From the NCBI GenBank assembly GCA_050084515.1, contig CM114271.1, forward strand, positions 6,944,001 to 7,008,000: a DNA stretch of 64,000 bases, in the 5' to 3' direction. The notes under the pieces are model-generated. The model had not been told where the DNA came from and ran no database searches. It saw only the letters and a list, made by a program, of their open reading frames with translations. Within the stretch, counting starts at the first letter, position 1. Every line of letters starts with the position of its first letter. A program made the position numbers and the translations under genes. This document shows, piece after piece, positions 1,936 to 25,320 of the stretch. This DNA comes from Blasia pusilla. Taxonomy: Eukaryota.

Positions 1936-3717
1936 GTCGCTTCCAACTTCCGGAGCAGCTGCAGCCGCTGCTCAGCCATCTTTAGGGCTTCGAAGGAACT
2001 TTCCCTCGAGACAATCGCGAATGTGGATCACGAGCCACCCAAGTATAGCGGACTTCGCCTGTCCGCCCTCCGCGGCTGGAATCGCCTGTACTGCAGTCCC
2101 GGCGCCTGCCATTCGCTTCGGGACCTGAACTCTCTCTCTCTCCACCGTCCCCGTCTCCGTGAAATTCCCCCTCTCAACGTAAGGACCGTCTACGGACCAG
2201 GCCGGGCGTCGCGACCCGGCAGGTCACGAGAAAAGCAGGGGTGAAAATCGATCGGCGCAGAGGGTGGACGATGTCGACCAATACAGTTTCGACGTCTGGG
2301 ATGCCTCGACGCTCACCCGTTCGGCGCACCTCGCGAAATGATCCGCCGCTTCCGTGCCGCCGAAGTCGCGCCAACCACGCCGCGGTGACAACCGCCGGTT
2401 TCCGCGACTGCCATCGTGATGTGCGTAACCGGAACCCGAACCGGAACGTGTGATTTGAGTGAACGGAACGTCGGAGATGACCGTAATATGATGGCGAAGT
2501 ATAAATCACGCTTAACTCACCCTGCCCACGATTAGTCTCCTCGAACTTTTAGCATGAGCTTTGAGGTTGCAACAAGAGGGGGGATAGCGTCGAATCCTCA
2601 TCATACGAAGGGAACCTACCAGCCAGTCCGATCCGGACATGCTGTTAACGGATTATATTTTCAATATTGCGCACAAAGCGTCTTCTGGGGGGGTCCAAAC
2701 GAATCAGCCTCCCTTGCTCCATCTACTAAGCTGCCATGTGTTACTTCTCTCGCTTGGTCTTCACTCCTCCGGACAAGTGACGTGTCGCGCTTGGCCATTC
2801 TCTCACAATGTTTCGCTTCGCCTTTCATCAACAATCAATCAACTAGGGCTTCGTTTCACTACACAGTTGAAAGAGTGCGTCTTTTGCTAGTCACGATAGC
2901 ACTTCGCTTTGTTAAGACTATCCATACTAGTTTTTGGACACTCACATGTTAATAATCACTTTATAGTGTCAACTCACATACAATAGTCGTCACCAAATGG
3001 AGAGGGCAACCGTTTTATAAATCAAAAAGACTTTTAATAGCCACATATTCTGAATGCTCTTTTTGAGCATGGTTATGCACATTTAGGGTTGTCGAATCTA
3101 CAACTTGTTGTTGTTGATACCTATGTCACAAAATCTCTTGCTCTTGAAAAATGCCAAAAGAACCATGAAAAGCAATGGAGGCACTATATCCCAAGGCATC
3201 CTTGTGGACAAGAGTGTGATCATGAATTTCTAGCCGCACCTTCAACGTAGGAGACAATCCATTTAACCTCCCTAAGCATGCTACTCATGAAGGTTGCCAT
3301 CGGTCAAAACCTCACAAGCGCTAAAGTTTGGTCATGTCGGGTCAAGGACCACTTCCCAAAGTGGAAATTCAACTATACTCCAAATGGAAACTTACCCGAA
3401 ATAATAGGTTTCTCTATATGGCTGAGGAAGGATTACGATCCCTCACATCAATGAGGTCGTATCAAGGGGGACCGTGGGAGGGGAGGGGGAGCTTACCCGC
3501 CTACGATTTCCTCTCATGCGAGATCTTGCTTCGTTCATCGTAAGATCAAGTTTCCATCATCCTCCTTGTCATATTCCTACTAGTATGACTCTTCTTAAGC
3601 GAGCTATTGTTCGGATGCATTCATGGCCTACATGGTCTTGTGAAGACACCTCTTCATGCAACCCACCAGAAGGAGAGGAGCACTTGTCTACGTCTACTTC
3701 TCTCCCACTAGGGTATG

Positions 3718-3854
3718 TGTCGTGCGCATACATATCGCTACAAAACATACATCGTTGGTCACATCTACACCACACAACACCGATCTTCCCCACACACGGG
3801 TCGATCCACACATGTACAAAATCAACTCATACATATATATGGAGATCACACAAC
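3718..3854 (-). repeat. E2 terminal repeat A (outer copy)
   Basis: TGTCGTGCGCATAC...GATCACACAAC; near-identical to 37281-37417, 37851-37988 and the split copy 4313-4369/13086-13170. Confidence 0.9.
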
Positions 3855-4310
3855 AAAAATAAAGAGTAGTAAAAATGGCATACCCGGCCTAAAACTCCAC
3901 TCCTAAATCTACATCGACATATCGAGCCTCGTCCACCCTGTGCTATCAAGGAATCCTCACACACATACAAGGGAGGTGCTCCAACGGCCCAACATGAGAA
4001 AGATGGCTTAAGAAAGCCATCTTCCTCTCTTATATAGGGTTGAGAAGAGCCAAAAGGCTCTTCCCCTAAAAATAGCCCTCCCCTTGGTGACCTGCGCGCA
4101 CAGGTTACCAGGGGCGGGTGACATGGTCAACAAATCACCCGGTTGTGAAAGAACTCAACATGAAAGTTGTCACAAACGACGTTCCTAACACAATGGACCT
4201 ATCCTCAACCTCATACGACACCGTGGGACAAAGTTACACTCAAGATAGTCCGCTGGCTCCTACGCCCTATCCACGATAGATCTCGGCCTATCGGCTACTC
4301 AGATGTGACA
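3855..4310 (-). repeat. E2 repeat B (promoter-bearing LTR-like unit)
   Basis: Matches 16502-16721 and 37418-37848; ends ...ATGTGACA on +; sense TATATAAG at 4036-4029. Confidence 0.88.
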
Positions 4311-4369
4311 ACTGTCGTGCGCATACATATCGCTACACATCATACATCGTTGGTCACATCTATACCACA

Positions 4370-4475
4370 TGTCGTGCGAATCCACATCGTCATATAACAT
4401 ACATCGCTGACATACCATACGCACATACATACATAACATAGACGAGAGTATCCACAAACGCAAGTGTACCACAAC
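4370..4475 (-). repeat. E1 repeat A, outer copy (106 bp)
   Basis: Direct repeat of 4847-4952. Confidence 0.93.
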
Positions 4476-4843
4476 TGAAATCCGTGAAAGACCTACTGTC
4501 ATAAAACACGTTTACAATCACATACAATCGAGCCAAACCCACTCCACGATGGGAGAATCTAGGTTGAAGCTTGAGGGAAACACCATAGCCAAGAGCTCTA
4601 CTCACTACCAAGGCTAACTCCCAACGCAACAGGCTCAACTCAAAGAATGATCGTTCTTTGAGGGCAAGCCACCTTATATCCTCCAACCTAAGAGCGGGCC
4701 CTACTGGGAAAGTCACCCCCAAGTGAGTAACCCCCAACCCTATGTATGGAACCGCATCTCTACCAAGCCACTACGGTCCTACATAAGGAATGGCCTCTAC
4801 CAAAGACACCATACTCTACGACATAATCCGTATGGTCATAACA
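4476..4843 (-). repeat. E1 repeat B, 3' copy (~368 bp, TG...CA)
   Basis: Direct repeat of 12719-13085 with roughly ten differences by eye. Confidence 0.95.
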
Positions 4844-4846
4844 AAT

Positions 4847-4952
4847 TGTCGTGCGAATCCACATCGTCATACAACATACATCATCGACATACCATACGCA
4901 CATACATACATAACATAGACGAGAGTATCCACAAACGCAAGTGTACCACAAC
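4847..4952 (-). repeat. E1 repeat A, inner copy adjacent to the PPT
   Basis: Direct repeat of 4370-4475, followed on + by TCGCCCCCCTAA (sense polypurine tract TTAGGGGGGCGA). Confidence 0.93.
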
Positions 4953-5129
4953 TCGCCCCCCTAACTGGCGGTTAGGTCCCTCTAACTCCCAGGTAGCCCT
5001 ATACATCTACTACATGCTATACACCTTCTTGGATGCCCGAATCAGAAGGCCAGGTGCTAGGTTGCCCCATCGTTAGTCGCACATCTATAATCCATATCAT
5101 GCAAAGATCAAGTCATCTACCTCTCCTAA

Positions 5130-8100
5130 GTACATCGAGGACAAACCCACCTTCCAAAGAGGAACAACATCCAAACGTGGAGTCAAACACATCATGTGCC
5201 AACCCCTAGAACACCGATCACACACCAACATACGGTGCGTTACCAGAGACCCACACAACATGCACCTCAAGCTAGCACGTATCATGGCTAAGCTTGGGTC
5301 AACAAGACCATCCACATTTGGAAGATGACATGGCGCACAATTACACACATGGTCCTTCCAAAAACTCCATCACGACCCTCCAACATGAGAACTCCGAAGC
5401 TAACACCTCACGCTTTTCGTAAAATAGTGCGGCTTGCCGCCACATCCAACGTTTTCGGGGCACAATCTGCTGCAAATAGACATAGTCCCCACATGGAACC
5501 TACTGAATCGATGGTCGATAACCTCCACTCGAATGGTTGCATACCGCAACGTATCCATGTGTTGAGCAATGGCAAGATTCTCAAAGGTCGTTGGCATAAC
5601 TCCGAAAGAGCTCGCTGCTGAGAACACATCCTCATCCACATCTCTCGGGTCATCAAGGTCCACCACCTCACTAGACTCCCGACGCAATTTTTTTTGGCAA
5701 GTCCGGATCTCGGCCGTATAATGTAAAATAAGGTGAGAAGGAAGCCAAGGATGCTTGGCGATCGAACCTATACCCCATGGCTAACCATGGCAACTGAATA
5801 TCCTAGTCTCCAAGATGCCCTTCAGAGGCCATACTTGCGCAATGCCCTCTTCACCGCCTCGAACCACACGCTCAGCCAAACCATCCGCCTCGGATGATCT
5901 CGAGACGTGGTCCGATGATCAATCAACGCCTTGTCACACAAGACCTGAAACTCACCTGAAACTCAGACTGGTCGGTCAAGACTTCAGTTTGGTGCACCAA
6001 AATGACTAAGCACTCTATCCGAAACGCATACGCCGTTCCTCACTTGCCTTGTCCGTAATGCCACCAACTCAATCCACTTGAGAAGTGCTCCACCATCACC
6101 AACACATATCGATGATGTCGTACAGTCAATGGTAAAGGTCCCGCAAAGTCCACACTCCAACGGTAACCCAACCCCATAATAGGCAAGGGGTGTAATTGTG
6201 GTGTAGGGGCATTAAATGATGCCTCACCCGGTCACAAACCATACAACGTGACACCAATCTGCTGCACTGAGTATGCATGCCACGCCACCAATATCGCCAA
6301 GGAGTAAGCTATACGACGCTTTACCCCAAAATGTCCCAACTCCTCATGGGCATGTCGCACAATGCGCTCTCTCTGAGCCAAATGTGGCACTACTCGTACT
6401 CTACCATCCTCCCACATACGGAGAATATGTGTTCCCTCCAATCGATACCTCTTAGCACGTTGAAGAACATGGTCTCGCTCCTTGGCACTAACTATGCCTG
6501 GCACCCTACTTTGGTCCGTAGGAACTCCAATACCAACGCATCTTCATGAATATCACGCTGATCCGTACCACCATCTCCAACCTTAGGATCCAAGGTGGCC
6601 ATCTACCCCTCGACTAGAGTAAGATATCATGTGGTCCTCCATACTAGAGTCCACCTAACCAACATAAAAGGCGGATGCATGCCAACCTGGCACCATCTCC
6701 TCATCAACCTCGCCATGCCATCTAGCCCCGTTGTATCCTCTTGGCTAGTACATGGGTTCCTACTCAACCCATCAAAGATCAAGGTTGGCAACTCAGGTCT
6801 ATGTACCATCCGAAGTCATACTCTGTAAGATAAGAGCCCACCGTGCAAGCTTCCCTGTAAGCTTGTCCGACTCCATCAACCACTTGAGCGGTGGTGATCG
6901 AGTAACAAGGGTAAATTGTGTGCCAAACAAGTAACACCTAAAGTGTGTGCCCACCCACACTCTTGCCAAGCACTCTCCCTCATATGAACTATAGCGCGAC
7001 TCATTTGCATTATTCGAACGACTTGCATAGGCCACCACAAACTCCATGTGTTCATCATCATGTTGTGTCAACACCGCTCCAAGTCCCAACCTACTCCAAA
7101 TGTGTAACTCAAATGGGCGCCCTCGATAGGTCCTCAAGATAGGCGCCGCCACCAACCGGGCCTTAAGCTCCCCAAAAGCTCTCTCCCGATCATCTCCCGG
7201 TGCCACTCTTGATCTGATTTCAGCAATTGGTTCAAAGGCTTTGCCATAGCACTAAATCCCTTCACATACCTCCGATAGTAGTTCGCCAATCCCATGAATG
7301 CTCGAACTCTACTCACATCTACCGGACGCGGAATAAGTGCAATAGCCTCCACCTTTGCTTGTGAACTCCCAAACCACCTGGATAGATCACATGACCCAAG
7401 TACTCAACATCCTCATGGAAGAACTTACACTTTCCTGGATGCAAACGAGACCATGAGCTTTCAACCGCTCAAACACCATCTGCAAATGTATCGATGCTCC
7501 TCCACCGTGTTATGAACACCAAGATATCATCAATGTAACACCGAACAAAATCCAACCTCGCTAGGATCCCGCCCATCACTCTTTGAAACTCGGCGGTGCA
7601 TTCTTCAACCCAAAGGGTAAGAATTTCCACCGGTACAAACAATCCTTGCCATGAGAGTTGACACCCCAAAATGTTGTCTTAGCCTTGTCACTCTCCCGAA
7701 TCGGCAATTGATGGTATCTCGCCCAAGATCCAAAGTACTGAAAATATTTGCCTGTCCCACCACATCAAAGATCTCTCTCGGTGTAGGCATGGCATACCTA
7801 TCGGCCTTGGTTTGCCGATTGATAGGGACGGTCATCTCCACACATCCGCCTATCCGTGTAGTTGCCATGCATATCCTTTTAGCAGCATGACATGTGGCCG
7901 ATGCATACTCTCCATGCGACAACTCCACTAATCCACCTTCCAAAAGGTCCAACGTCCTACTCAATCAGGTCCCTCTCCATATCACTATATCGGTAGGGAC
8001 GACGGAAGATTGGCGTATCACTAGCCAAATCAATCCGTATACCGGGTCCAACCAGAGAACCCAACTCCTTCATGCTAAAGGCAAAATAACTCCTATAAGC

Positions 8101-8180
8101 ACGTAGGAACTGTGTCAAGCGTCGTTTCTCACCTCCCGTAAGCTTGGGCCCAAGTAATGGCTCCCAAGTCTCCTCCACGG
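5130..8180 (-). pseudogene. E1 pol: RT, RNase H, integrase, C-terminal PHD finger (frameshifted)
   Basis: ORFs 7605-7964 (ADRYAMPT..EIFD), 7469-7669 (CYIDDIL), 7134-7352 (VRAFMGLANYYRRYVKGFS), 6799-7206 (RNase H), 6232-6504 (integrase HHCC start), 5097-5348 (CMLC...LVCDRCSRGWHMMC). Confidence 0.92.
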
Positions 8181-8449
8181 CATACTAGGGGAGAGGGCGA
8201 TGCCATTGGCTGCTACGCAACCCCCTCACTAGATGATACACCCTTAGCTACACCATCATCTGAGCAAATAACTCCTCCACCAGCATGAGCAACCAACTCC
8301 ACATGCCCAACCATTATATCCCATTTACTCCAAGGATGCAAAATACTACTCTCCTTGCCCCCAGCCGATGCCTCTACCGTCCCGGTAGCCATCGAGCTCA
8401 TTACAAGGGGTGGAAGACCCACAGACATAGTCCGAAGTCGATGCTGCTC

Positions 8450-9420
8450 GGCCATACCAAGACTCAAAATCCAAGTCAAACAATTCAGGTCTATGGCCTG
8501 ACCCAACACATGACGTCATGAAGCCTCAGAAATAGAAGCAACCGCTGTCACGCCAGTAGTAAATCCCATCGCACGCTCTCTCTCATCAACGTTAGGCTCC
8601 ACCAATTGTCGCACATGAGAATCCCATACAAGCCCGGACCACCTTCCCTGTAGGCATGTGACGCGGGAAAACTCACAAATGTGGGTAGTGCCATCCTAGG
8701 CTGGCCCACACGGTTCACCACTGCCATGGGTGACCGATCAATAACCCTCACCACTTGAGAAAGTCGCCAAAGATCCAAGATACTATCCACCGTAAGGCGA
8801 GGATCCTCTTTGACTTTGCATCATATGCTCGACGTAGAACCTCCTAGGCAACAAGTTTGTCCACCACAAGCGTGGGACGATGTGCACTATAAGCCAACTC
8901 ATTTGCATCCAACAACACACGCTGGTCCAATCCAAGACCGCACCTCATGAACACTCGCCATCATCCGGTCCGAGTGTCACCTAACAATGGAACATTCTCA
9001 GAATGTAAGCTAGAGCACGTGCTCGATGAACTCAAGATGTCGTAACACCCGTAACATCTCCCAAAACAATCGAGACCTAGGGTCATGTAATCCCTCACCA
9101 CGACCAAAGACGTGTATGACTCGACATGGCCATCCAAAGCAATCACCAAATCCATAGGACCAACCCTCTCAAGGTCCTGCGCCCCAACAATGCAATGTGT
9201 GATGGTAAAGCACGCTGGTACCCACGAATAGCCGATGGCGGCAACAACTCGGGATATCTCGCATCAATCGACCAATATGTCGAGATGAGACTCTCGGGCC
9301 GTCTCATCTCGCTCCACATACACGTATCTCCCCGACAGAATACCGCCTGCAACATTGCCGCCAAACCAAGTGCTAATCCCACCAAAGAGATCTAACACAC
9401 AAATGCCCCCCGGATCTTGC
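8450..9420 (-). pseudogene. DNMT3-like cytosine-5 DNA methyltransferase domain in E1 pol (frameshifted)
   Basis: Motif I VLDLFGGIS (~9371-9400), II YVYVERD, IV DLVIA/GWPC (9124-9155), VI ENVP (8988-8999), VIII AHRP (~8875), IX ERERAMGF (~8560-8585), X LGQAIDL (~8485-8506), in canonical order. Confidence 0.88.
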
Positions 9421-12400
9421 CATACAATGGGTGTAGTATCCAAAGGGGATAACCAATGGGCGTAGTAGGAGTCCGCCGTGGGGCCTCCTCTTCCTCGTGA
9501 GGTAAATGACCTCACACCAAGCCTCTGCACTAGGCGTCGCCTCTGCCGTAGTGCACCGCTTTGAACTCCAAAGTGGCACATCCAACGATGAGGATGCCAC
9601 TGCTGCAAAAATAGGGACCTCCTCTACCTCCTCATGCAGGAGAATCCATAGCAAAACATTACCCTCAAAAAGTCTCATGGCCAAGTGACTACTCCACTAA
9701 AACCACCCACGGATGCTAACACTTTGTTGGGGAAGACCCTCTGGTCGAGCCCCGAAATAAATCTCACAGAACTTGGCTCATACGTCCATCCCCGGATCGC
9801 CAACCTGGTCTATAAGACTGTCTCGGTCGAGTAATCCATCGAAAACCCATCGGTACAACATCGCTCCTCCAACTAGTACATCATACGACTCGGTGATGTG
9901 ACTACCGCAGATACTCCCAACCGGGAGCTATATCGCATGATCTGGTCTCAATCAGATAGAAAACTTCTCCCGTGTCATGAATTGAGACCTATCATTGGCT
10001 CCTCCAAGTGATGTTTGAATCTGGAATGGGCAAGGCTCAAGCTCTCCCATCCTCTTGGGGACAAAACTTCCTAACATGATCACCTCCACATGTTCAACAT
10101 GATCGCCCTTCTTGCGGGGCAGCAAATGAAGGCAATGGTCTCTGCACAAATGTCCCTCTAGGACTTGATCGAGGTCGCGTGTACCCCCACGACTCCCACT
10201 ACTACTACCACCACCACTACTACGAGATCGTGAGGTGGGCGGTGAACACGAGAAGTAGTAGTTGTATCCCTCTGCACGCGGATGTCACCACTCTCTCCTT
10301 CACCATGTTAAGCTCAATCTTCTCAGATAGAGCAAACACATGGGTCAATGTGGATGAATCATCACTCATAAGAGTAGCATCACGCACCCTACGGCGCAAA
10401 TCTCGCTCCAAGATCCCATACAAAATCGATCGCTCTGATCTCCTCGGTCACACCCTGCGGGTAATCGAAATCAGCGTCGCATACGCATGTATGCCTCACG
10501 AAGACTCTCACCATTCTTTCGCTCAAAGTCCTGAAGATTCCTCAACTTCTCCGTCTTCACTCCTTGATAGTTCTTCTTCAACCTCTTGAAGAACTGCAAT
10601 CAAGGCTAAACGATGGTGGGGCACTAGTACCTCCACTAGTACCCCCACTAGTACCTCCACGGTACCCCCACTCCGGCTCGCTCGTACCACTCAACGTCGG
10701 GTGGTTGGCATAGTAGGAGCACTACTACCAATACCACCATGGGTGATAGACACATAGCCTGGAGACCAATATTGTCTCCATGCCTCAATCTCAAACAACA
10801 TGGTCCTTCCTAAACTCATGGTAATCATCCATGGGTGGTCCTTCCAAGTCTTTGAAACAACCCTTCCAAGCCAAGAAGGGTGTAAACAACGTATGTTCGC
10901 AACATCTCGCATATCACACCACGTATCAAACTCCTGCATGAAGTCCTCTAACTCAATGGTACCCATTGCACGCGAGTATCGTCGTGGGGCCATCATGGGC
11001 CCATATCCACAAATCCATGTCCCAAATCAATGGAGTGCAACACTCGATAACAACGTAGAAGACTCGGTGTTTGGAACACCCTCGTCCTCCTCTTCATCAA
11101 CCGTCGGAAGTGGAAAAGGTAGCCGATACCTAAATCCACTCCGTGTGAAACCACCACTGTCCGCACCACGGTCCCCAACCAGACCACCCGACAACTCTAT
11201 GATGACCAACGCCGATGCCGCACCACTACCAAATTACCCAAGTGACGTCGATGTCGCTCTATTAGTGTAGCTCTACTAGCTATGGGTGTAGGCAACCTAA
11301 CCTCTCATCACCACAAGAAGACTCCCACGGTCTACTGGTCATCACTCCAGCCTCACTATCAGTAGCACACAGGAGTAACACTACTATGGAAATCAGCGTC
11401 AACCCTAACAATGGGCGCGCAAGCAAGAAGCACAATGGAGGGGATCCAAACACAGGAAATCCAACGACAACCCTCCAATCGCAAATGGAAATCAAGGTAA
11501 CCACATCCACCAAACGTGGTGCCCTCTCGAATCCACAAAACCCACCACACAATTCTAACGCATAATAGCTACTCCGCCGCTGGTCGATGACGTGCTAGTC
11601 GAACTCATGACACCTAAAAATATCACTGCATGGAGAGGCTACACCGTATTATGCGCTAGAGGTACATCAACCAAAAACCTGAGATGCATAAAGTGCCTAA
11701 CACCTCTCCGAACAAAGACCAAATGAGCTACAATCATCAGACACCTGGCATAGTTAAGAACTCAGCATTAAGCGTCCTCCAGGCAGAATAGCCCAAAGAT
11801 GGGTGACCAGTTATGCAAAACTCAAATCCTAATTCCTGCAAAAATTGCCTCACGCCCAAGCAAGCAAGCTTGCTTGCTTGCTCCTTGCTCCTTGCTCCTT
11901 GCTCCTTACTCCGCCTCTCTCGCCCCGAGCTACCACGAGTTGCCTCGAAGCCTCGAAGCCTCGAAACGCCGAGACATGCCCCTATCGCCCCGTTCGCCAT
12001 GCTTCGCTATGGAGAGAGGTCCAACCAGGGCGCCCCCAATGGGATAGGCGTCTCCAACAATGAACGAGTCACCAACCAACCAGCCCCTCCGATCCGCTGT
12101 CCACCATAGCCAGACCTTGAGCTAGTCCGCAAAATTTCGATCAGAAATTACTTCACAAATAGGTGACCGAAATCAAATCTATTTCAATCAGAATTCAATT
12201 GACCACCATAGCTATCTCCCCACAAAAACTCAGCTACAACCGAGCTCTGTACTCCGAGCTAAAAATCAGACAAACTTGCTGTCCATACACCTCTAGAACC
12301 GCAAATCCGACAGCGCTTCCGCCAAGTTTCATGCACGCAGAAATTCGCAATGCTCCACGCACTCGAGCAGATCGCTTCACATGAGATCACAATACAAGTA

Positions 12401-12718
12401 GCAATAGGAACCTCTCACCCGATCTGGATGAACTTCAACAGAGCTTCCGCACTCCAAGCTCTCCACATCAGAAAACTGTCGAACACGAACCAGAATCTTC
12501 AATGCTTGATAACTTCCAACTCCCTTGACGAAATCCGCGATCTGGTAGCGTTGGAAAGCTCTCAGCAAGGCGCTTCTTTTCCAACCAACCATGCACCTGA
12601 TTCACACCTCCAACATAGGCAACAAGCCGTGAACATCCACGGCTGAGTACACAATCAGCCCTAACCAGATCCTACTGATCTAATCGAAGCTACCATCGAT
12701 CTACTCCAGTTCTTTGAG

Positions 12719-13085
12719 TGAAATCCGTGAAAGACCTACTGTCATAAAACACGTTTACAATCACATAAAATCGAGCCAAACCCACTCCACGATGGGAGAA
12801 TCTAGGTTGAAGCTTGCGGGAAACACCATAGCCAAGAGCTCTACTCACTACCAAGGCTAACTCCCAATAATAACAGGCTCAACTCAAAGAATGATCGTTC
12901 TTTGAGGGCAAGCCACCTTATATCCTCCAACCTAAGAGCGGGCCCTACTGGGAAAGTCACCCCTAAGTGAGTAACCCCAACCCTATGTATGGAACCGCAT
13001 CTCTACCAAGCCACTACGGTCCTACATAAGGAATGGCCTCTACCAGCACACCATACTCTACGACATAATCCGTATGGTCATGACA
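12719..13085 (-). repeat. E1 repeat B, 5' copy; forms the element's 5' terminus and contains a TATA box
   Basis: Repeat of 4476-4843; sense ATATAAG at 12923-12917; TSD follows at 13086. Confidence 0.93.
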
Positions 13086-13249
13086 CACACAACACCGATC
13101 TTCCCCACACACGCGTCGATCCACACATGTAAAAAAATTAACTCATACATATACATGGAGATCACACAACCGCCCCCCTAGCTGGCAATTGGATCCCCCC
13201 AACTCCAGATAGAAAATATCACATCTCTCTAACATGACCTACTACCCTA

Positions 13250-16116
13250 TACACATCTCGGACACATCCATCGTCCCGTGGGAACCACATCAAGAGGGGG
13301 GGTCGGACATGACATATGCCACCCTCGAGAACAACCATCACATACCAACATGGTGGCTGCATCCCTCGCAGATCCGCACAACATACACCTCAAGCTTGCA
13401 GGTACCATTGCCAAGCTCGGATCCACCGTCCCATCTACATTCGGAAGATGACATGGCGCACAATTGCGCACATGATCCATCCAAACCATACCATCCCGTC
13501 CCTCCGACATGAGGACTCCGATCGGTAATACCTCGCGCACACATAGGATCGTGCGCCCTGTAGTGACATCTAGCGTCGTGGATGCCGCTTGCTATAAATA
13601 TACGTAATCTCCAGGATGAAACCTCCTAATTCTTAGACGATAACCTCCTCCACGAATGGTCGCGTACGTCAATGTATCTCTATGTTGAGCAATACCTAAG
13701 TTCTCAAAGGCCATAGGCATAACTCTACGAAAAACCTCCGCCCTCTGAGAACATGCTTGTACCCACACATTTGGATCATCAAGATCTAACACCTCCGCCA
13801 TGTCACGTCGAATCGCTGCAGGTAAATCTGGCTCTCTTCCAAAGAGCAAAAAGTACGGTGAAAATGACGCCAAGGATGCCTGCCGACTAAAGCGATAACC
13901 CATAGCCAACCATGGCAACTGTAGGTCCCACTCCCTCAACTGTCCCTGCTGCAAGCCATGCTTGGGCAATCCTCTCTTCACCGTCTGTTCCACTTTCTCC
14001 GCCAACCCATCCGTCTCAGGATGATCTCTGGATGTGGTGCGGTAATCTATCAGCGCCTGATCACACAAGGCCTGAAACTCTCTCCTGAACTCGGTACCCT
14101 AGTCAGTCAACACCTCCGCCGGTGCACCAAAGTGACTAAGCACACGATCTAGAAACGCATAAGTTGTTCCCTCGCTCGCCTTGTCTGGTAGTGTAACCAA
14201 CTCTATCCACTTTTAGAAATGCTCCACCATGACCAACACGTACCTATGATGACGCCCCGTCAATGGCAAAGGTCCCGCAAAGTCTAAACTTCACCGATAA
14301 CCTAAACCCATAATCGGCAAAGGATGTAACTGCGGAGTGGGAGCATTGAAGGATGCTCGCGCTCTGTCACATACCATACATCTGGCCACCAACTGTTGTA
14401 CCCTAGTATGCATGTCGCGCCACCCTAGTAAGTACGCTTCACTCCAAAATGTCCCAACTCCTCGTGGGCATGTCGCACTACACGTGCTCGCTGAGAAGGA
14501 TGAGGTACCACTTGTATCCTATTATCTCCCCATACCCGCAAAATGTGAGTCCCCTCCCACCTGAACCTCCTGGCTCTCTGTAGGATCCGATCCTGCTCCC
14601 TAGCACTCACTGTACTCGCTATGACGCCAATGCGCAAGAACTCCACAACCTCCACGTCGTCATGGATATCACAACCACCTGTTGCCTCCTCACTAACCTC
14701 CGGATCGAAAGACTCATCATCCAACCCCACCACTAGAGTCATCACCTGTGGCTGACCTGCTATAGTCAACTAACAAAGATAGGCAGATGCATGCCAACCC
14801 GACACCATCTCCTCATCACTCTCTCCGTGCCATCGAGCTCCTGTGTAATCTCTCTGAATCGGACATGGGTTACGACTCAACCCATCCGCATCTTGGTTCA
14901 GCCGACCTGGCCTATGAACCACCTCAAACTCATACTCCTGTAGTAATAGAGCCCACCTGGCAAGCTTTCCCATAAGCTTGTCGGACTCCATCAACCACCT
15001 CAACGATTGATGATTAGTGATAAGTGTGAAAGGGTTGCCGAATAAATAGCACTTGAAATGTGCCACGGCCCACATTGCAGCCAAGCACTCTCCCTCGTAG
15101 GAGTTGTACTTTGCCTCTGCAATGTTGTTCGATCGGCTTGCGTAAGCCACAACGAACTCCCTCTCCTCGTCATCCCTCTGAGTAAGCACTGCTCCTAGAC
15201 CCAACATGCTCAAATCCATATGTAACTGGAATGGGCGACCCCTAACCGGTCTCTATAAAATTGGTGAGGACGTCAACCTGTCCTTGAGCTCCTGAAATGC
15301 TCGCTCATGATCATCTCCCCACAACCAAACCTGATCAAGTCTCTTCAACAAGGTCAAAGACTTTACGATCGCACTAAAACCCTTGACATACCATCCATAG
15401 AAGTTCGCTAGTCCAAGAAATACTCGTACTCGACTCACATCTGTAGGGCGTGGAATCTGCACAATAGCCTCTACCTTCGTCTGCTGAACGCCTAACCCAC
15501 TCGGGTATATGGTGTGTCCCAAGTACTGAATCTGCTCCTCAAAGAATCTGCATTTGCCTGGATGTAACTTCAATCCATGTAACTGCAATCGCCGAAACAC
15601 CTCCTCCAAGTGTCGCTCATGCTCCTCAACCGTGGAACTGAAGATAAGAATATCATCTATGTAACATCGTACAAAATCCAAGCCAGCCAAAATCCTATCC
15701 ATCACTCTCTGAAACTCTACAGGCGCGATCTTCAACCCAAATGGTAGGAACCGCCACTGATACAAGCAATCTCTCCCGAACCGATCTATCCCCCAGAATG
15801 TTGTCTTCTCCTTGTCCTCCAACCTGATAGGAAGCTGATGATAGCCAAAGACGGAGATCTAAATCTTGAAGATCTTTGCATGCCCTACCGCATCAAAGAT
15901 CTCCTCAAGAGTAGGCATGGCATACCGATCTGACTGTCGGTTGATAGGACGGTAATCTCCACACATCCGCCTATCCGTCCAATTGCCATATATATCCTTC
16001 TTCGCCGGCATGACTCTGGCAGATGCATACTCCCCATGTGATAACTCCACAAGTCCTACCTCCAACAAGTCCTGACTCCTGCTCTGAATCAAAGCTCGCT
16101 CCATATCAGAATACAT
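13250..16116 (-). pseudogene. E2 pol remnant: RT, RNase H, integrase, PHD finger
   Basis: ORFs 15859-16116, 15253-15822 (WRFLPFGLK..CYIDDILIFS), 14770-15219 (RNase H; ADGLSR), 14425-14769, 13592-14068 (TTSRDHPETDGLAEKV), 13247-13540 (C4HC3 PHD). Confidence 0.93.
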
Positions 16117-18320
16117 GTAGGCGCACCCCTATGCGCGCGTCCCACCTCGGGGGGGGGGCGTGCGCCGTTCGCGCCCTAACCCTACCCCTAGCCACCCTTT
16201 ACTTGATAGCCCCCCGGCGGCTGTAAGCCCTAACTCTCCTTCTTGCAAAATCCCGACATTCTCGCTATTAGACGACGCTATACCTAGCGTCACAACCTGC
16301 GCTACACCCTGCTGTTGTCCCCCATTAATCCGCACCAGCAAAATTTGAGAAAAACGGATAACGCTTCCGCCCACGGCCTTCCAAACAGAAAAATGACAAA
16401 CACCCGCAATACACGCGTATCCAGGGGCCCCCGACCAAGGCAACTCGATTGCTTACCTGAAAACAACGAATTCCCACCAGCCCCCTGCCATCTTTCTCAC
16501 GTAAAAATAAAGAGTAGTAAAAATGGCACATCCAGAATCAAGGAATCCGGACGCTAGCACCCTAGTCCTATCTCACACACATACAAGGGAGGTGTTGCAA
16601 CGGCCCAACATGAAAAAAATGGCTTAAGAAAGACATCTTCCTCTCTTATATAGGGTTGGGAAGAGCCAAAAGGCTCTTCCCCTAAAAATAGCCCTCCCCT
16701 TGGTAACGTGCGCGCACAGGTATATTTATGATATAATACAAAATATTCATTATTTACTTACCATACATTCATTGCATTTAGGGCTCTGTAAGGAGGACAA
16801 GGGATAGGATCCTCAAAGGTATATCACAAACAACATCCATCTTCTTGCACTACTACATTTGCGACTGATTTACAAGTTACATGAGCCAAAACTCGGTGAT
16901 AGTACAATTGCAATAAAATCACACCGGGCTTACAACTTTACGAGTCTCACACTCGTAATTGACTCGCAAACTTGAGAAGTGGACTTACAAATTATGGTCG
17001 TAATGTAGCTTAAAGGTTCCATTTTCTTATACTTGCAAATCCTACACAGTTTAATCCCAAAATGCTGGTACGATGCTTGTAAGAGAAAGTAACTTTTTCA
17101 CGTCTTTGCAAGCCACTTTTTGGTGATTAAGAGTCTGACTAGTTACAAATAAGTCTTAAATAGCAATTCCAAAAAATAGTTTTTTTTTGCATTTGCAAAA
17201 TAGTGGTTTTGGACAACGGTTTGATTAGTCACAAAATACCTAGTCCAACTTTTTTTCACTCACAAACTGGTTTTTTTGGTCTCACAAGGGCCTCTCAAAG
17301 TTGTGGTTTTCTACAACTGCAAAGTAGTTGTTTTCTACTCCTCTTAAATTTGGTTTTAACTCATTCTTGGGTCGAGAAAATCTGTTTCATCGAGGATTTA
17401 TCTCCTTCCAACTTTTTCTTATGCATGATTTTGCTTTCTTCTCTTTCATTTCTTTGTTATTAAAACCAATTTTTTTGGGAAAAAAACATGTACAATTATG
17501 AGCTTCATTCCACACATATAAGACGCTAATTCATTTGAATACATAAATATAAATCATATGCCTATTTCTTGGATATTTTTTTCTCTAAAATTCATATTTG
17601 TGATTAGAAACTAAGTGATGAGCTATCTGGATAAAAATACTTATGTGGGTCTTAAATTTTTTTCGTGAAACCCTAAGAATTCTCTAGGTCTGAAATCATT
17701 ACTTATTTGAAGGACTATAATTAAAATTTGGAATATCTTAACTATTTAGAAGAAAACATGTATATATTTGGTGGTTTTTGTAAAATTTCTACCACATCTA
17801 TGATTATAAATTTAATTTTAATATTTTTCTTACAATGCTTAATAAATCTAATATACAAGAAAATAGTAAAATAAATTCATCTTGCAACAAATTGATATCG
17901 AATTCAATGGTACTAATCTTGATGAATATTTCTACCTCTTTTTCTCCTCAAATTCATGATAGTTAAAATACATCAAAGCCTTCTTATGTGGACTAGAAGT
18001 AGATGGATTTGTTTTTTTTACGAAACGAAACTCAAAATCCAAAATTTCTTTCGATCATGGAAAAAAGTCCATAACTAAGAACGTTACCAAAGGAACTACA
18101 TCTTTCACTTAGTTGTTAATGTGAGTTCAATTGCAATATTCATAAGAAAACTTCTTTCTTACTAAAGCTCATACCAAATATTTTATGATACTTTCCAACC
18201 AAATTAATCTGAATTTTGAAGCCAATTCATTTAAATCATGTTTCATAATATTTATCAGATTTTATATATATATACATACACATATTAGGATTCCTTTATA
18301 GGTGATGAGGATATGATTAT

Positions 18321-21300
18321 TGTGGTGCGCATACACATCGTTACACAACCCACATCGTTGGTCACATCTACACACCACACAACACCGATCTTCCCCAACA
18401 TACGGATATATCCACACATAAATTAAACATACTCACGCATATACGGTGGGACCCCACAACCGCCCCCCTAGTTGGCAGTTGGGCCCCCCTTACTCCAGAT
18501 AGCACACACGTATGTCCTCGACATGATCTCCTACCTATACACATCTAGCACTATTGGTGTCGTCATCCCCGTAACACTGCCACACTGCAGCAACCCGCTG
18601 TAGTGATCCCTTCGAAGAGATCTAACACTCTCGTACCCTGCTCCAAACATAGACACCATTCCACGCCTGCCTCACGAGCTCATCTGCACTCCACGCATCT
18701 CAACGCTCGTCTCCAACAACAATAAAGAAGTTTGCACCATGGGAAGAGACACCCACCTTGGCATGTCTCTCCGTGGGATTATTCGCTATAAGAATGTCCT
18801 CCGCATGTGTGCTCCTCTCCCCGAACCCTCCTCATCAACTAACACCACCTGTAAATGCTGCCAATGTGATCACCGTATCCTCATGTGGTTGACCACCACT
18901 ACTCCTTCCAAACAATACTGGTAGATGGCTCACTCATCCGTCATCTGATCGCCATCCTAGCCGATAAAAAACCGTCTCCTCCCAAAAATCCAGACTGAAA
19001 CCAAGGGGATACAACACCGAACTCCCTACCAATACATCATACGACTCTACCAATGTCGTAATCGCCCGACTGCGCACCATCGCACTATCCGACTCATGCT
19101 ATGGCTATAGTCTAACCACCAACTCCTATCGAGTCATGTAATGGATGGATGATACGCCCCCAATAGAGATATGTATCTGAAAGGGACACGCTCAATGTCG
19201 CCTTTCCATAATTCCAACGCCAAACACGTCGCCTTCCCTAACATCAAGGGTTGCGCTCCCGAATCAAGTAGGACTCGTTGCGGGTAGTACATCGTACCTG
19301 TGGGACAAACCAAGAGAAAAACTCCTGCTCGATTATCCAACAACACCACACCTGGTGTGATCATGGCTCGCTCTATCGCAGACATAGTTGGCATATCTAT
19401 CAACTTTGTCACCGCCACATGCCATGAGTCACTAGGAGACGTCTCGAGCACATGCTTTGAGGGGCTAGTCCACAACCTCCTCAACTACTTCTAAACGAGA
19501 GGCAGTCACCTCTCCACGCTCACACAATGTGGCGGCCAGTCGGAACACCTCCGTTGGTCCAACTCCCAACGTCGCCAACTCTATGGCAGAAAATAATGGA
19601 GTTTGGCTTATCCTAGTGGTCACCTCCAACAATATGGTCGACATTGGCTCCTCCCGAGCCAACATAGGAGTTGTCTCTCCAACTCCTCGTGACGTCAATG
19701 CACCTACCTCATCTGTGGGTACTAATGATCGTCAAGGCATGATTGACGATATATGTAGTGCCTGCGACAATGTGAACGACTGGGAAATCCTAGCCTGCCG
19801 CCCATTGGTCCCCTCTTGTGGGTCAATCTCCACCCACCTCTCAGTGGCTCGATCACTCTTGCAGCACCTCGAGTCACCACCGCAGTAGCCTCAACCTAAG
19901 CTGCATTGCACATAAACCTCTACCTCGTATAGTCCTCCCCCGTATTATGATACGACGTGGAGGTTGGAGCCACACTTGCTACTCTTGGCTCCAGACCTGC
20001 CTATAGCTGCATGATCATCATGGCGGAAATCCTCTACTCCAACTGATCAATGCGCGAAAGGAGCGCTGCATCGGGTGCCCGTCCTCCATCTCCTATGACT
20101 GGTGATGGCACTCTACCACCACAATCATCCACTTCTCAATCTCCATCAACTCCTTGCCCCCAAGTCATCTACCTACCTCTGGGCGTACCTCCAGGCGAAG
20201 ATCATAACCCCTATCCCTAGTGTGACCATATCGTTGAGAATGATCACACTGCAACTATGGTGGGGCCATCCTCTGTGGCTCCTGAGCATTTGGAGGCACT
20301 CGTGGCCCTTTTCCATGTTGTGGGCAATCCCTCTACCTATGTGACCCACCACACGTCCAACAAGCCAACCCTGGTCCCTGCTCGGAAACATATGTCGATA
20401 TGGGCCGTTGCCTCATTGGGTCATGATACCCGCCATGCTCTGTGGGCCCACCAGCTCGCTCCTATGGTATTGGTGCATGTTGGGGCACATATGGGTCTAC
20501 TCCTACTCATCGATCCGTCGTATCCTACGAAAATCCCGTGGTCACCACCTACTCCTCACTCATGTTGAGCTCTACTCGCTCAAACAACTCTAACATCACC
20601 GTCAATGTGGGATTCGCCTTGTGAAGCAACATTGCATCCCAAACTCTCCTCCATAGCTCCCCGTCCAGCACCCCGAACCAATACCATACTGACTGCACCT
20701 CAACCATCCCATATGTGGCAACGATCAACTGTCACATGCGTGTGAACGCCTCCCTCAGGCTCTCACCCGATGTGCACTGAAAATCCTGTAGACTCTTCAG
20801 CTTGTCGGTCCGCACACCCTAGTAGCTCCTTTCTAAGTGTCAGAAGAAATCCACTATAGGACTTAAACTTGGTGGTCCTTTACCATAAGAGGTCTCTGCC
20901 ACCTCATCACTCTCACTGCCATCATCTCCATCTAGTCCCCGGGCTAATGGTGTAGATCTCTCTACCCTCACTATCCCATTATACGCCTCGCGACCACTAG
21001 TGAACATATACCCTAGAGCCCAATACACCCTCTAGGCATCAATCTCTATAAAGTATAGAGATCGAAACTCCGTGTAGTCATCCATCGGCGGATCCTCCAA
21101 GTGCTTGAACAACCCCTTCCATGCCATAAGAGGGTTGAACCGCGTAGGGGTCCGTATCTCTTGGAAGTCGCACCATGTGTCGAACTCCTGGATGAAACCG
21201 TCAAGATCTATGGTGCCCACTGCACCTGAGAAACGAGGCATGCCCCAATGGCCCATGTCATCCATCTCTCTCCACGTATCATCGTCCGCGTCCGAGATCT

Positions 21301-23049: not shown

Positions 23050-25320
23050 AAGATATAAAATAAGTATAAAAAAGGATGGGGAACCCATCACGATACAAAT
23101 GAGGGGGCAAAGAGAGCCAAAAAGGAAGAGGCCAAAATCGGCCCCAAGCAGAAAGAAGGGGGCCTTCCCCCTAACGACCAAAATTACCAACACCGGAAAC
23201 AATATCAACAACATCTACAGAATTATAACTACTATTAAGTGGGCCTCTAGCATTGGCGTCTCCAACCACCTGAGCCCGTCGCAGAAGCCCATTTTCCTGG
23301 GCGCGCTGCAAAGCTATGGAGACCTGTTATTTACAATAAATTATCGCAGTGGCTAACGACAACCTATTTCTTGACTGGAGATGATGGGCGCAATCCGTAA
23401 GGAACGAGTCAAACCTCTCTCCCATCGCCCCATACATCTCAATGGCTAGGGGGATAAATCGATGTCCGTCATGAAGTCGACTGTAGATGTGGGCCACCGC
23501 CGCTCCTTGTAGCAATCTCCCTTGTGCTACCACTTGGGCTCGCACCGCCTCCCGCGCAGGATCCGTCACTACAACATCCGCTACCGAGTGGAACTCCCAA
23601 GACACGAAGCCCTCCAGTAGGTGCCAACAAACCGTCGGGTAAATGAATATCCGTTGACAAGCCTAATGAAGACCAAGCCTTGCACTTTCCCACCTTCACC
23701 GTAAGGCCGACATGTGCCAACTGTGCTGAGAAGTGCTGAAATGCAGGAACAACCAAGTCTCCAAGGCCTAAAATGTGAGTATCATCTGCCAACGAAGGGA
23801 AAATGCAACCCGGGAAAGCCTCCACCGTAGAAAGAACCGCTCGATAATGAGCCAAGGCAAACAATGCACCCCCAAGGGATCACCTTGACGCGTCCCAGTA
23901 GCAGACTCCAAGACCGTGACCTCCTCCTCGAACCTACCGTGGTGAAAATAGAGTGTCGAGGGAGCCCCATAAAAAGAATACATGAAGGGAATTAGACTCG
24001 CTATGGGACCCCATGCATCTCTCAACTCCATGAAGATAGCTGCTCGAGACACTGAGTTAAAGGAGTTCTCCACATCAACTTTGAGAACCACCCACTCGGG
24101 ATGTATGTCTAAACAAGCCCTCAAACCTAAGGCTCTGACCTCACAACCGGCCGGGCGTGGCAACTCGAATCAAAAGTGCGGACTCGGATGTGATCGAAAG
24201 CCTCACGGAACTGCAAAGCGATAGTACGACTCACCAACCGCAAGAGCACCTCCCCTATGGCAATCGGACGGATCCCTCCACCCTCCTTCGATAATGCCAG
24301 AAGTCGCCCCGTCCCCAAAACCTGGGCTACTGTTGTTGGCACTCTCCCCTGAGCTAGGTGAGAGGCAATCTGAAGCAACTCGGAAAAGCCGCTAGCAGAG
24401 TCCTTGCGGGGAAAGCAATCACGAAGGTGTTCGTACATCATACCGGACAACCCTCCAGCTGCTATCCTAGGGGAACGCCCGAGTGCCCGTGCAAAGAGGG
24501 ACGGGTCTAGGCATAAGGTCGTGTTAGGATGGAAGTCACGTACAAATGTTGGGATGTCAAGCGCTGGACGAGGGTGTAGCCTCCTGAGGGCGCCGATGGT
24601 AACAGTGGAAGGAGGAGCCATATCCATAGGGCGGAGCGCACGAGCTGCTCGCGAGTACTCCCCGGCTCTCCCAAGTGTCCTACATCGTCGCAATCTGGCA
24701 GCCACAAGATTGTCCGTTGGGAAACCACGTGGAGTGCTACCTCTGGCATATGCCACAAACTCGCTCTGCAGAGACTCTCAATCACCTCCTCGGAAGCGCC
24801 GCAATCGGGCCACAACCTCTCTATGGCCAGCCTTCCCTCCTCGGATATAGCGAAGACACGATCGTGGAAGGAGAAGTAGTAGATACCACGAGAGCTCATC
24901 CATAGGATCAAGGGAAATCCTAGATAAGGGCAGGAGGAAAGACTGGCGAAGCTCATCCCGAATAGCATGGGGGATCCTATGAAACAACCTCGGGCAGGGC
25001 AAACGGGTCTCAAAGAGACATGTGATGCTACCAAGGTGGGACCTCAACCACTCCCATGCCTCGGAAGGGGGTGATGATGCATGAAGCATCGGTGAGCATC
25101 CATGATCGATTGGAGGAACCACCCATCCAAATCTATCAAAGTCAGGATGTTTAGCCGCTAAATGGTTCCGAATTCCTGAACGAGTGAAGAATTCGGGACA
25201 ACAAGGGCATTTTGTATCCCAGCTAGACGACCCACAAGCCCCTACGCGAGGGGTTGATGTGGGTCGAGGCATGGACACCTCTCACCAAGAAGAAAACATG
25301 ACCCCCTCCATCAAACTCGA
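23050..25320 (-). mobile_element. CRE-like non-LTR retrotransposon (C2H2 zinc finger, RT, restriction-like endonuclease), rearranged and frameshifted
   Basis: CPCCPEFFTRSGIRNHLAAKH (ORF 24778-25278); GGIRPIAIGEVLLRLVSR; KVDVENSFNSV; GTRQGDPLG; LADDTHILG; endonuclease DVVVTDP...FIPLAIEMYG (ORF 23327-23605). Confidence 0.85.

Follow-up and report, generated by a model that had tools for sequence, protein, structure and literature searches.

The window, the whole 64,000-nucleotide stretch of Blasia pusilla DNA analysed here, harbours three elements (E1, E2 and E3) that are classified from their sequence as Ty3/gypsy copies, decayed and lying on the minus strand. E1 consists, in plus-strand order, of A(4370-4475), B(4476-4843), AAT, A(4847-4952), polypurine tract (PPT) and, beyond the internal region, B(12719-13085), with the following features.

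4366-4369, no strand: left copy of the CACA target-site duplication (TSD)
4370-4475, minus: terminal A copy (A'2), ending at the 3' integrated terminus with CACGACA when read in element sense (repeat search, blastn)
4476-4843, minus: 3' B copy (B'2), in which a TATA-like motif is present and RNA is predicted to start
4844-4846, no strand: spacer AAT at the palindrome-like junction of A end and B start
4847-4952, minus: internal A copy (A'1), which the PPT immediately precedes
4953-4963, minus: PPT, AGGGGGGCGAG in element sense
5100-5369, minus: PHD finger at the integrase C-terminus (PF00628, E 3.7e-6)
5403-6543, minus: integrase remnants interrupted by stops and frameshifts (H2C2 matched weakly at 6235-6543, a fragment of the core at 6043-6231; homologous E3 ORF with H2C2 and rve)
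6802-7251, minus: gypsy-type RNase H (PF17917, E 3e-26)
7137-8184, minus: reverse transcriptase (RT) remnants with a visible YIDD motif (translations; DNA homology to the RVT_1 region of E2)
9267-9623, minus: motif I region of a DNMT3-like methyltransferase, preserved as a remnant (61% identical to a PF00145-bearing protein of Marchantia; counterpart in E3)
12709-12718, minus: predicted self-priming primer-binding site (PBS), CTCAAAGAA in sense, immediately adjoining the 5' B
12719-13085, minus: 5' B copy (B'1), beginning at the 5' integrated terminus with TGTCATG when read in sense
13086-13089, no strand: right copy of the CACA TSD

This layout, proposed in the initial annotation together with the plus-strand ends (TGTCGTG as first and CATGACA as last letters) and the CACA flanks, was confirmed by a repeat search and blastn. 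The A copies at 4370-4475 and 4847-4952 share 96.2% identity and the B copies at 4476-4843 and 12719-13085 share 96.7%, and the 4-bp duplication on either side is clean. The end of B is separated from the second A by three bases (AAT, 4844-4846), and the letters that follow this A, ctcgcccccct (4953-4963), are the complement of a G-run. In the 5' B, a TATA-like motif lies near 12916-12925 and the PBS complement at 12882-12891. The outer boundaries can also be read from E2, whose second A is interrupted by E1 and left as halves at 4313-4369 and 13086-13170; as had been claimed, these halves can be rejoined, and after removal of one CACA they have the exact length of the first A of E2; two repeat-search families (D2 and D10) overlap by exactly these 4 nt.

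The remaining elements are distributed as follows, and the window as a whole is a nest of retroelements.

3718-4369, minus: 3' end of E2, with A (3718-3854), B (3855-4310), AC and 57 nt of the second A up to its interruption by E1
13086-16721, minus: remainder of E2, with the rest of A (to 13170), PPT (13171-13179), an internal region that runs to about 16121 and carries integrase, RNase H and RT, and what is left of the 5' B (16503-16721)
18321-19691, minus: E4, with a single A (18321-18459) adjoining AT-rich DNA, PPT, a deleted internal region and a short-form-like 3' end
29467-30093, plus: E5, a solo B-A unit of E4's family with the 4-bp TSD CCTC (29463-29466 and 30094-30097)
37281-42658, minus: E3, with A (37281-37417), B (37418-37848), AC, A (37851-37988), PPT and PHD, integrase, RT and DNMT ORF fragments

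No 5' end of E3 was found within the window. The A-B-NN-A-PPT layout is common to E1, E2 and E3, in agreement with the initial annotation; A, B, AC and A were delimited in both E2 and E3, and the A unit of these two elements measures about 137 nt and not 119.

The elements combine RT, RNase H and a DNMT3-like remnant with an integrase of the H2C2/DDE type that has a PHD finger at its C-terminus; judged by minus-strand coordinates, Pol runs in all three from RT through a gypsy-type RNase H to the integrase. Pfam scans of ORF pieces detected RT_RNaseH and PHD in E1, and RVT_1, RT_RNaseH, Integrase_H2C2 and a partial rve in E2 and E3; in E3, H2C2 reaches E 8e-13, while rve (E 2e-4) lies on an incomplete fragment and falls under the curated cut-off. 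A related copy with B-int-A-B-A structure (L036) carries rve at E 1.4e-12 (48.1 bits vs a cut-off of 32.6) as well as PHD, the family consensus integrase retains the W..D, TDQG.EF and DGLAER motifs, and the rve/DDE integrase is kept throughout the lineage. Two relatives (P0033 and P0018) show the order DNA_methylase-RVT_1-RNaseH-H2C2-rve, with an additional PHD in P0033. The DNMT piece of E3 has PDB matches only to DNMT3A/B/C, weakly (E 0.007), and aligns to P0018 at 6e-21 over a region overlapping the PF00145 match of the latter; within the window, the DNMT3-like domains are remnants. The Ty3/gypsy identity and the DDE integrase proposed earlier are upheld; the DNMT3-like and PHD domains had been overlooked. 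Since every copy examined is broken by stops, none can be called active.

On this domain and repeat content, E1, E2 and E3 are assigned to the streptophyte "Gypsy-DNMT3" (KnitGypsy-Dnmt3) lineage, a putative kinship with the Klebsormidium elements being based on pairwise similarity (the E3 integrase piece is 41% identical to a Klebsormidium nitens retrotransposon protein). Both hallmarks of that lineage are present, namely a DNMT3-like C5 methyltransferase in the polyprotein and DIRS-like A-coding-B-A-B repeats combined with gypsy domains. The legend of Fig. 4c in de Mendoza et al. 2018 (PMC5890265) describes KnitGypsy-Dnmt3 as having DIRS-type repeats and Gypsy domains, and the window elements resemble it in their gypsy domains, the DNMT3-like domain in Pol and the A-coding-B-A-B repeats; Gypsy-DNMT3 retrotransposons are also named in a 2026 bioRxiv preprint (10.64898/2026.05.21.726589). 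Unlike KnitGypsy-Dnmt3, however, the window elements have liverwort proteins (62-65% identity), not Klebsormidium ones, as their closest relatives. The layout that the initial annotation raised as possibly undescribed is real, but on the evidence of that legend the combination of split-repeat topology and gypsy domains has already been described in an alga (de Mendoza et al. 2018, PMC5890265), and the topology itself is not new. Neither TSDs nor a primer site, a palindromic junction or a mechanism are given in the main text of that paper, and its supplements may hold more. What is added here, from 80 related loci, is the recurrence of the layout, the TSDs, the PPT and PBS positions, the A|B palindrome and the variable B|A joint.

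These 80 loci include 24 without a 3' end, 3 without A, 30 with A-B-A, 3 with A-B ending at the contig edge, 18 with A only, 1 odd and 1 undetermined. After removal of duplicate insertions, 26 copies, on metagenome contigs, have the long form (B-int-PPT-A-NN-B-A) and 16 copies the short form (B-int-A). The long-form copies span at least three families, with integrase identities to E3 of 35 to 75%. None of the outcomes named beforehand as counting against a lineage-wide layout was encountered: canonical LTR-int-LTR copies number 0 among the 80 related loci, no free-standing A element was seen, and A-B-A is borne out by independent contigs. The earlier generalization is upheld, with the caveat that about 16/42 independent 3' ends are short B-int-A ends; in short-read metagenome contigs, these may partly reflect assembly collapse of the A-B-A loop.

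A secondary origin of the layout, by later rearrangement of a canonical LTR element, a nested solo-LTR, a tandem solo B-A beside B-int-A or an assembly artefact, could draw on the retroelement nest in the window and on the occurrence of solo units (E5) and short forms. It is nevertheless highly improbable, given that the arrangement is repeated in E1, E2, E3 and 26 independent copies of at least three families. The A|B spacer measures exactly 2 nt in 30/30 A-B-A loci, none of which has an internal TSD between the units at the spacer; it is also 2 nt in E2 and E3, and 3 nt in E1. Moreover, A-A and B-B divergences are similar, the corresponding identities running in parallel in 8 complete loci and E1, and independent assemblies agree on A-B-A, including a bridging contig from another run (X7) in which a B end is joined to an A start with GC between. 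Together, these comparisons support the split layout as a property of the lineage rather than an assembly accident.

Among 13 independent two-ended units, 4-bp TSDs are perfect in 9, match at 3 of 4 positions in 3 and are absent in 1 (L073), in line with the earlier description of a Ty3/gypsy element with DDE integrase and a 4-bp TSD. With respect to Ty3/gypsy, the Pol order, the H2C2 and rve integrase and the TG..CA termini with a 4-5 bp TSD are all present, whereas two equal LTRs around an internal region are replaced by B-int-A-NN-B-A in E1 and the 26 independent copies. DIRS/PAT/Ngaro elements are not known to create a target-site duplication on insertion, unlike the present ones. PAT/Toc/Ngaro elements (DIRS order) resemble them in having direct repeats split as A1-int-B1-A2-B2, the internal repeats lying downstream of the coding sequence; they encode a tyrosine recombinase, while the elements described here have a DDE integrase and 4-bp TSDs, terminate in TG..CA and carry CA-NN-TG as a palindromic junction.

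A DIRS/Ngaro-like movement, in which an undetected or in-trans tyrosine recombinase would insert circular cDNA site-specifically and the gypsy integrase would be irrelevant to the layout, is suggested by this topology, which defines PAT/Ngaro-type elements, and by de Mendoza et al. 2018 (PMC5890265), who equate the repeat structure with that of a DIRS retrotransposon. Set against it are TSDs that are perfect or have one mismatch at 12/13 complete units, short inverted repeats borne by the TG..CA termini and an rve/DDE integrase conserved over the lineage; in addition, Phage_integrase had no Pfam match in 20 ORF pieces of E1, 8 of E2/E3 and 5 locus ORFs, and is absent from the precomputed Pfam lists of 45 homologues. 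The tyrosine-recombinase route is disfavoured, with only a very slight chance of being correct.

The PPT adjoins the internal A (A1) in all 28 loci printed. An exact PBS complement of 10-15 nt lies inside B in 10/19 5' ends, the observed length being matched by at most 1/300 control 15-mers; the other 9/19, which are old, mutated copies, have just 0-8 nt, and in L033 an 11-nt match occurs at a non-homologous position. Three distinct PBS sequences each co-vary with their partner inside B, which sits about 30 nt past a TATA-like motif, the PBS itself adjoining the 5' B end. The primer site is predicted to operate by Tf1-like self-priming, with the partner marking a putative transcript start. As in Tf1/sushi and plant Tcn1 elements, the LTR-adjacent primer site is complementary to a spot just past the presumed transcript start and not to a tRNA, and the REXdb survey predicts self-priming in the Tcn1 and TAR lineages. 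Unlike those elements, which have canonical LTRs and a chromodomain, the present ones have permuted repeats and, by Pfam in E1 and relatives, a PHD finger in place of the chromodomain at the integrase C-terminus.

Where A meets B, the palindrome GACA-NN-TGTC (..CACGACA NN TGTCATG..) is conserved; its spacer among 25 independent copies is GC in 8, AC in 8 (counting L015, re-read from TA), AT in 5, AA in 2, TC in 1 and GT in 1. The B|A joint is variable: in family F3, 0, 1, 2 and 3 extra nt occur in 3, 2, 6 and 1 of 12 copies, the commonest extra, AT, being the first PBS bases, and in family F1 two copies (L001 and L010) have extra PPT-side bases, B of L010 also being 22 nt shorter. Such length variation resembles that of end-joined cDNA.

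In sense orientation, the integrated form is TG-B-PBS-internal-PPT-A-CA-NN-TG-B-A-CA, with the 4-bp target duplication outside. Because the PPT adjoins A and the PBS adjoins the 5' B, ordinary reverse transcription would yield a linear cDNA with A-NN-B LTRs. The chromosomal termini differ from these expected cDNA ends and correspond to the two halves of the palindrome inside each such LTR. The most likely mechanism, favoured with modest confidence, is that the cDNA ends are joined and the DDE integrase then cuts the internal palindrome. Following reverse transcription into cDNA with A-NN-B LTRs, the B end would be joined to the A start, through ligation that closes a 2-LTR circle or through a template switch from end to end; the integrase would nick 3' of both CA dinucleotides at the PBS-proximal palindrome, and the opened molecule would be inserted with a 4-bp stagger. 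The long form alone would retain the 3' R and could replicate again, while recombination, or cuts at both palindromes, would give rise to the short form (B-int-A) and to the solo B-A unit.

A symmetrical 2-LTR circle contains two identical palindromes, yet the alternative permutation, B-A-NN-B-int-A, occurs at 0/19 5' ends, so a simple randomly cut circle is insufficient. This asymmetry would be accounted for if no covalent circle formed and the plus strand, on reaching the B end, switched end-to-end onto the A start and copied a further A-NN, the integrase using the outermost palindromes. Such a switch would also explain the 0-3 nt variation at the B|A joint, and the short form would follow naturally wherever extension was absent; it requires, however, a jump by just one of the two strands, and ligated 2-LTR circles show heterogeneous joints just as typically. 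This circle-free route is judged unlikely, though far from negligible.

Cleavage of joined ends by the DDE integrase has parallels. The integrases of foamy virus and HIV-1 cut the palindrome at a 2-LTR junction, and IS3-family transposases use the abutted-end junction of a circle; the proposed route resembles the 2-LTR and IS3 minicircle junctions in a symmetrical DDE cut at abutted ends a few bases apart, followed by insertion. In retroviruses, by contrast, the palindrome arises when cDNA ends are joined, whereas here each LTR already contains it as templated sequence and the joining of cDNA ends would produce a separate, non-palindromic B|A joint. That the whole lineage integrates obligatorily via an end-joined, 2-LTR-circle-like cDNA opened by the DDE integrase at a templated internal palindromic att site is a tentative proposal, conceivable but on balance somewhat doubtful. 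If true, it would represent a eukaryotic retroelement with IS3-like circle-junction integration, and the likeness of its split repeats to those of DIRS elements would have arisen convergently, as a by-product of the integration route rather than a sign of tyrosine recombination.

The split-repeat layout that the initial annotation described for the Ty3/gypsy element E1 is real, and its first interpretation is correct. The copies and terminal repeat units (A and B) concerned are listed here in window coordinates.

Element copies and terminal repeat units in the window
4370-13085, minus strand: E1
4370-4475 and 4847-4952, read on the plus strand: A copies of E1
4476-4843 and 12719-13085, read on the plus strand: B copies of E1
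3718-16721, minus strand: E2
4313-4369 and 13086-13170: halves of the second A of E2
37281-42658, minus strand: E3
18321-19691: E4, single-A copy
29467-30093: E5, solo B-A unit

The layout is exactly as noted: on the plus strand, E1 starts with TGTCGTG and ends with CATGACA. Its A copies share 96.2% and its B copies 96.7% identity; AAT lies between the first B and the second A, which is directly followed by the polypurine tract (PPT), seen on this strand as its complement, a C-run. E1 is inserted in the second A of E2, whose halves, minus E1 and one CACA, have the exact length of the first A of E2, so that the claimed E1 duplication is indeed a clean 4 bp. The A-B-NN-A-PPT order (NN being the spacer at the A-end/B-start junction) is common to E1, E2 and E3, and, as also claimed, the sequences of E2 and E3 differ from those of E1; in the sense direction, this corresponds to B-internal-PPT-A-NN-B-A. 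The 5' B of E2 is cut off at 16721 by an AT-rich stretch (16722-18320) that also adjoins E4, whose single A borders AT-rich DNA and lacks an A-B on the outer side.

E1 is heavily broken, with 134 stops in one reading frame and a longest stop-free piece of 150 aa. A Pfam scan of its stop-to-stop pieces, many of them below scorable length, detected RNase H of the gypsy type (3e-26), a PHD finger and, weakly, the H2C2 region of an integrase, while the better preserved E2 and E3 add RVT_1, RT_RNaseH, Integrase_H2C2 (8e-13) and the start of the rve core. An E3 ORF with DLFGG...GWPC matches no Pfam family alone; its PDB matches are exclusively DNMT3A/B/C catalytic domains, at weak significance (E 0.007), and at 6e-21 it aligns to the part of a 1494-aa relative that holds the methylase. 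Its E1 counterpart shares 61% identity with a Marchantia protein containing PF00145. The closest database proteins come from the liverworts Calypogeia, Riccia and Marchantia (62-65% identity), and a Klebsormidium nitens retrotransposon protein shows 41% identity. Among 45 matching proteins, DNA_methylase occurs in 4, PHD in most and a tyrosine recombinase in none. Full-length relatives have the order DNA_methylase, RVT_1, RNase H, H2C2 and rve, with PHD after rve in one of them (P0033); the presumed gag ORFs of relatives matched no Pfam family. E1, E2 and E3 are newly found, bryophyte-type members of the Gypsy-DNMT3 kind.

Several other features are present in the same window. An intact ORF of 264 aa (51281-52072, plus strand), matching the Steroid_dh domain (PF02544, E 9.5e-25), is probably a host gene of the enoyl-reductase/steroid-5-alpha-reductase type within the transposon nest. 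A Ty3-type gag (Retrotrans_gag, Ty3_capsid) with zinc-knuckle and aspartyl-protease ORFs (31524-32888, plus strand) sits between two roughly 1-kb inverted repeats (30383-31377 and 34029-33068, 93% identity), an unusual setting for a retroelement fragment (30383-34029). Long ORFs of another retroelement, with a sub-threshold RVT_1 match (E 5e-5), occupy 46038-48570 (plus strand) and 24127-26492 as two diverged copies of non-LTR-like appearance.

The lineage was surveyed in 80 related loci from metagenome contigs, fetched by integrase alignment (35-75% identity to the E3 integrase piece), placed in the sense direction and classified by a blast search of all 80 with a library of their own A and B units.

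Classes of the 80 related loci by A/B library blast
A-B-A: 30 loci
A only, then 380 bp or more of other sequence: 18 loci
A-B, cut by contig end: 3 loci
Odd partial: 1 locus
Room for 3' end, no A found: 3 loci
3' end outside contig: 24 loci
Unassigned to any class: 1 locus

After identical insertions were merged, the 3' ends comprised 26 long (B-internal-A-NN-B-A) and 16 short (B-internal-A) forms, the latter possibly including collapsed A-B-A loops, since metagenome contigs are short-read assemblies. Complete long elements (B-internal-PPT-A-NN-B-A) were found in 8 loci, representing 7 independent insertions of 8.3-10.1 kb with A exactly twice in each, and complete B-internal-A elements in 4 loci; within the window, E4 resembles the short form. 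All copies examined are decayed. Canonical LTR-internal-LTR ends occurred in 0 of the 80 loci, also by a more sensitive self-comparison, and the 26 independent long copies sustain the proposal that the layout is a lineage property. Two loci, L069 (251-5518; two A-B-A sets with the integrase-to-3'-end segment duplicated as a partial tandem copy) and L076 (1555-2036; an element beginning some 220 bp away from an A-B-A of another family in reverse orientation), suggest that the lineage clusters or nests in its own repeats, like E1 inside the A of E2. In organism A runs (Logan contigs), summed contig word depth over E1/E2 (window 3600-13400) ranges from thousands to about 1e5 and the listed differences are mostly transitions (T>C, A>G, C>T), indicating high copy number and divergence of the family in that organism. 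Not one of these contigs extends across the whole element, and the empty-site joint 4369->13086 is not among the joints listed, a listing that carries no information on absence.

The families share conserved termini (TGTCATG ... CA(C/T)GACA), and the flanks of 13 independent units with both ends were compared.

Flanking 4-bp sequences of the 13 units (5' flank, 3' flank, matching positions)
E1: CACA, CACA, 4/4
E5: CCTC, CCTC, 4/4
L008: AAGG, AAGG, 4/4
L028: TTTG, TTTG, 4/4
L033: CATA, CATA, 4/4
L058: ATAA, ATAA, 4/4
L072: ATGT, ATGT, 4/4
L009: TACA, TACA, 4/4
L018: TACA, TACA, 4/4
L052: AACA, AATA, 3/4
L076: ATTA, ACTA, 3/4
L016: GGTA, AGTA, 3/4
L073: TAGC, ACTC, none

Since a 4-bp match arises by chance with a probability of 1/256, these flanks give good support to a staggered insertion of DDE type at the B start and A end. 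Insertion by a tyrosine recombinase is contradicted by these target-site duplications (TSDs), by the TG/CA termini and by the lack of any such recombinase domain in the ORF pieces and homologues scanned.

The A-end/B-start junction reads ..CACGACA NN TGTCATG.., with a spacer of exactly 2 nt in 30/30 A-B-A loci; the AAT of E1 is the only 3-nt spacer. The spacers of 25 independent copies are GC (8), AC (8), AT (5), AA (2), TC (1) and GT (1), and with GC the junction core GACAGCTGTC forms a perfect palindrome. The possibility that the spacer is remade in each cycle was rejected, as most variants are transitions from GC and 22/25 are purine-pyrimidine; decay at an unconstrained, possibly CHG-methylated site suffices to account for them. 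An origin of the layout by accidental rearrangement, tandem insertion or assembly artefact is contradicted by its recurrence in 26 independent copies, distributed over at least three families, the fixed 2-nt spacer without an internal TSD, the matching A-A and B-B ages, and a contig of another run (X7; Logan contigs) that bridges the B end to the A start.

The B-end/A-start joint varies in length within subfamilies. In 12 copies of family F3, it carries 0 (3 copies), 1 (2), 2 (6) or 3 (1) extra bases, the common AT being identical to the start of the primer site. L001 and L010 of family F1 have 3-4 extra PPT-side bases, and L010 also lacks 22 nt of B. Such heterogeneous joints look like joined, unprocessed cDNA ends.

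In each of the 28 loci inspected for it, the first A comes immediately after the G-run of the PPT. The bases that adjoin the 5' B on its inner side can pair with a site inside B, and the exact complement extends over 15 nt in L005 and L008, 13 in L028 and L077, 11 in L076 and 10 in L016, L026, L072 and E1, while L033 has an 11-nt complement elsewhere in B. Complements of at least 10 nt occur in 10/19 5' ends (0-8 nt in the remainder), and among 300 control 15-mers per element interior at most 1 reached the observed length. Three unrelated primer-site sequences (CTCAAAGAAC.., AATCACCAAAAGT and ATTCTAGAAAAACT) each have their own partner in B, which in every case lies some 30 nt after a TATA-like motif, at a distance of 111-163 nt from the end of B. 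The predicted primer site follows the pattern of Tf1-type self-priming, which the REXdb survey predicts for the Tcn1 and TAR lineages. In family F1 (E1 B copies at 12880-12908 and 4637-4665; L005, L008), the predicted transcript start falls within a small hairpin, and a second primer-site copy (CTCAAAGAA) lies just upstream of its complement, where it may compete with or regulate self-priming; no such copy or hairpin was seen in families F2 and F3.

Since the PPT adjoins A and the primer site adjoins B, ordinary transfers would give the linear cDNA [A-NN-B]-PBS-internal-PPT-[A-NN-B]. The chromosomal ends in this DDE-integrase lineage cannot be those made by reverse transcription, and hence a joined-end intermediate seems required for integration. 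As a concrete, testable hypothesis, the integrated copy would be the two-LTR cDNA in circularly permuted form, with the opening at the palindrome of the primer-site-proximal LTR: the cDNA ends would be joined, integrase would nick that palindrome 3' of each of its two CA dinucleotides, so that 2-nt 5' overhangs remain as on a processed retroviral end, and the opened molecule would be inserted with a 4-bp stagger. The B-end/A-start joint, uncopied into progeny under these transfers, would be remade every cycle. Only the long form would keep a 3' R copy and could therefore replicate; short forms and solo units may arise from A-A or B-B recombination or from cuts at both palindromes. Retroviral integrases are capable of the kind of cut proposed, as foamy-virus and HIV-1 enzymes cleave the palindromic 2-LTR junction, and for IS3-family transposases the abutted-end minicircle junction is the insertion substrate. 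The intermediate could be either a symmetrical circle with directed choice of palindrome or a linear cDNA whose right end is lengthened through end-to-end template switching, in which case integrase would use the palindrome lying farthest out on either side. Both alternatives are offered because the two palindromes of a symmetrical circle are identical, and the other permutation (B-A-NN-B-internal-A), recognizable as B-A-NN-B at the 5' end, occurred in 0/19 ends (some duplicates).

The split-repeat topology in a DDE/gypsy lineage is already in print through KnitGypsy-Dnmt3 of K. nitens, described by de Mendoza et al. 2018 (PMC5890265), where the legend of Fig. 4c gives this element DIRS-type repeats together with Gypsy domains. 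The main text of that study contains no TSD, primer site or mechanism; its supplements may report more on termini. A literature search for other gypsy/DDE elements with split direct repeats returned nothing beyond that study; "streptophytes (Gypsy-DNMT3)" are named in a 2026 preprint (10.64898/2026.05.21.726589), and the words PHD, Klebsormidium and Marchantia are absent from the consulted part of the REXdb survey of plant LTR elements. What is added to the known topology is the 4-bp TSDs, the self-priming site, the internal palindromic att site and the heterogeneous B-end/A-start joint. Dictyostelium DGLT-A, which has odd LTRs, was dropped as a parallel; these are unmentioned in the portions of literature searched.

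In textbook LTR retrotransposons, linear cDNA is integrated and its ends are the LTR ends, 2-LTR circles being regarded as dead ends. If a joined-end intermediate is required, this lineage would provide a natural system with a productive circle-junction or permuted intermediate, and split direct repeats alone would not be diagnostic of tyrosine-recombinase elements. It would also explain how a family so abundant in bryophyte-type genomes would be overlooked, or given wrong boundaries, by programs that search for LTR pairs and by classifications built on LTRs, and would be relevant to the handling of unintegrated DNA by DNMT-carrying retroelements.
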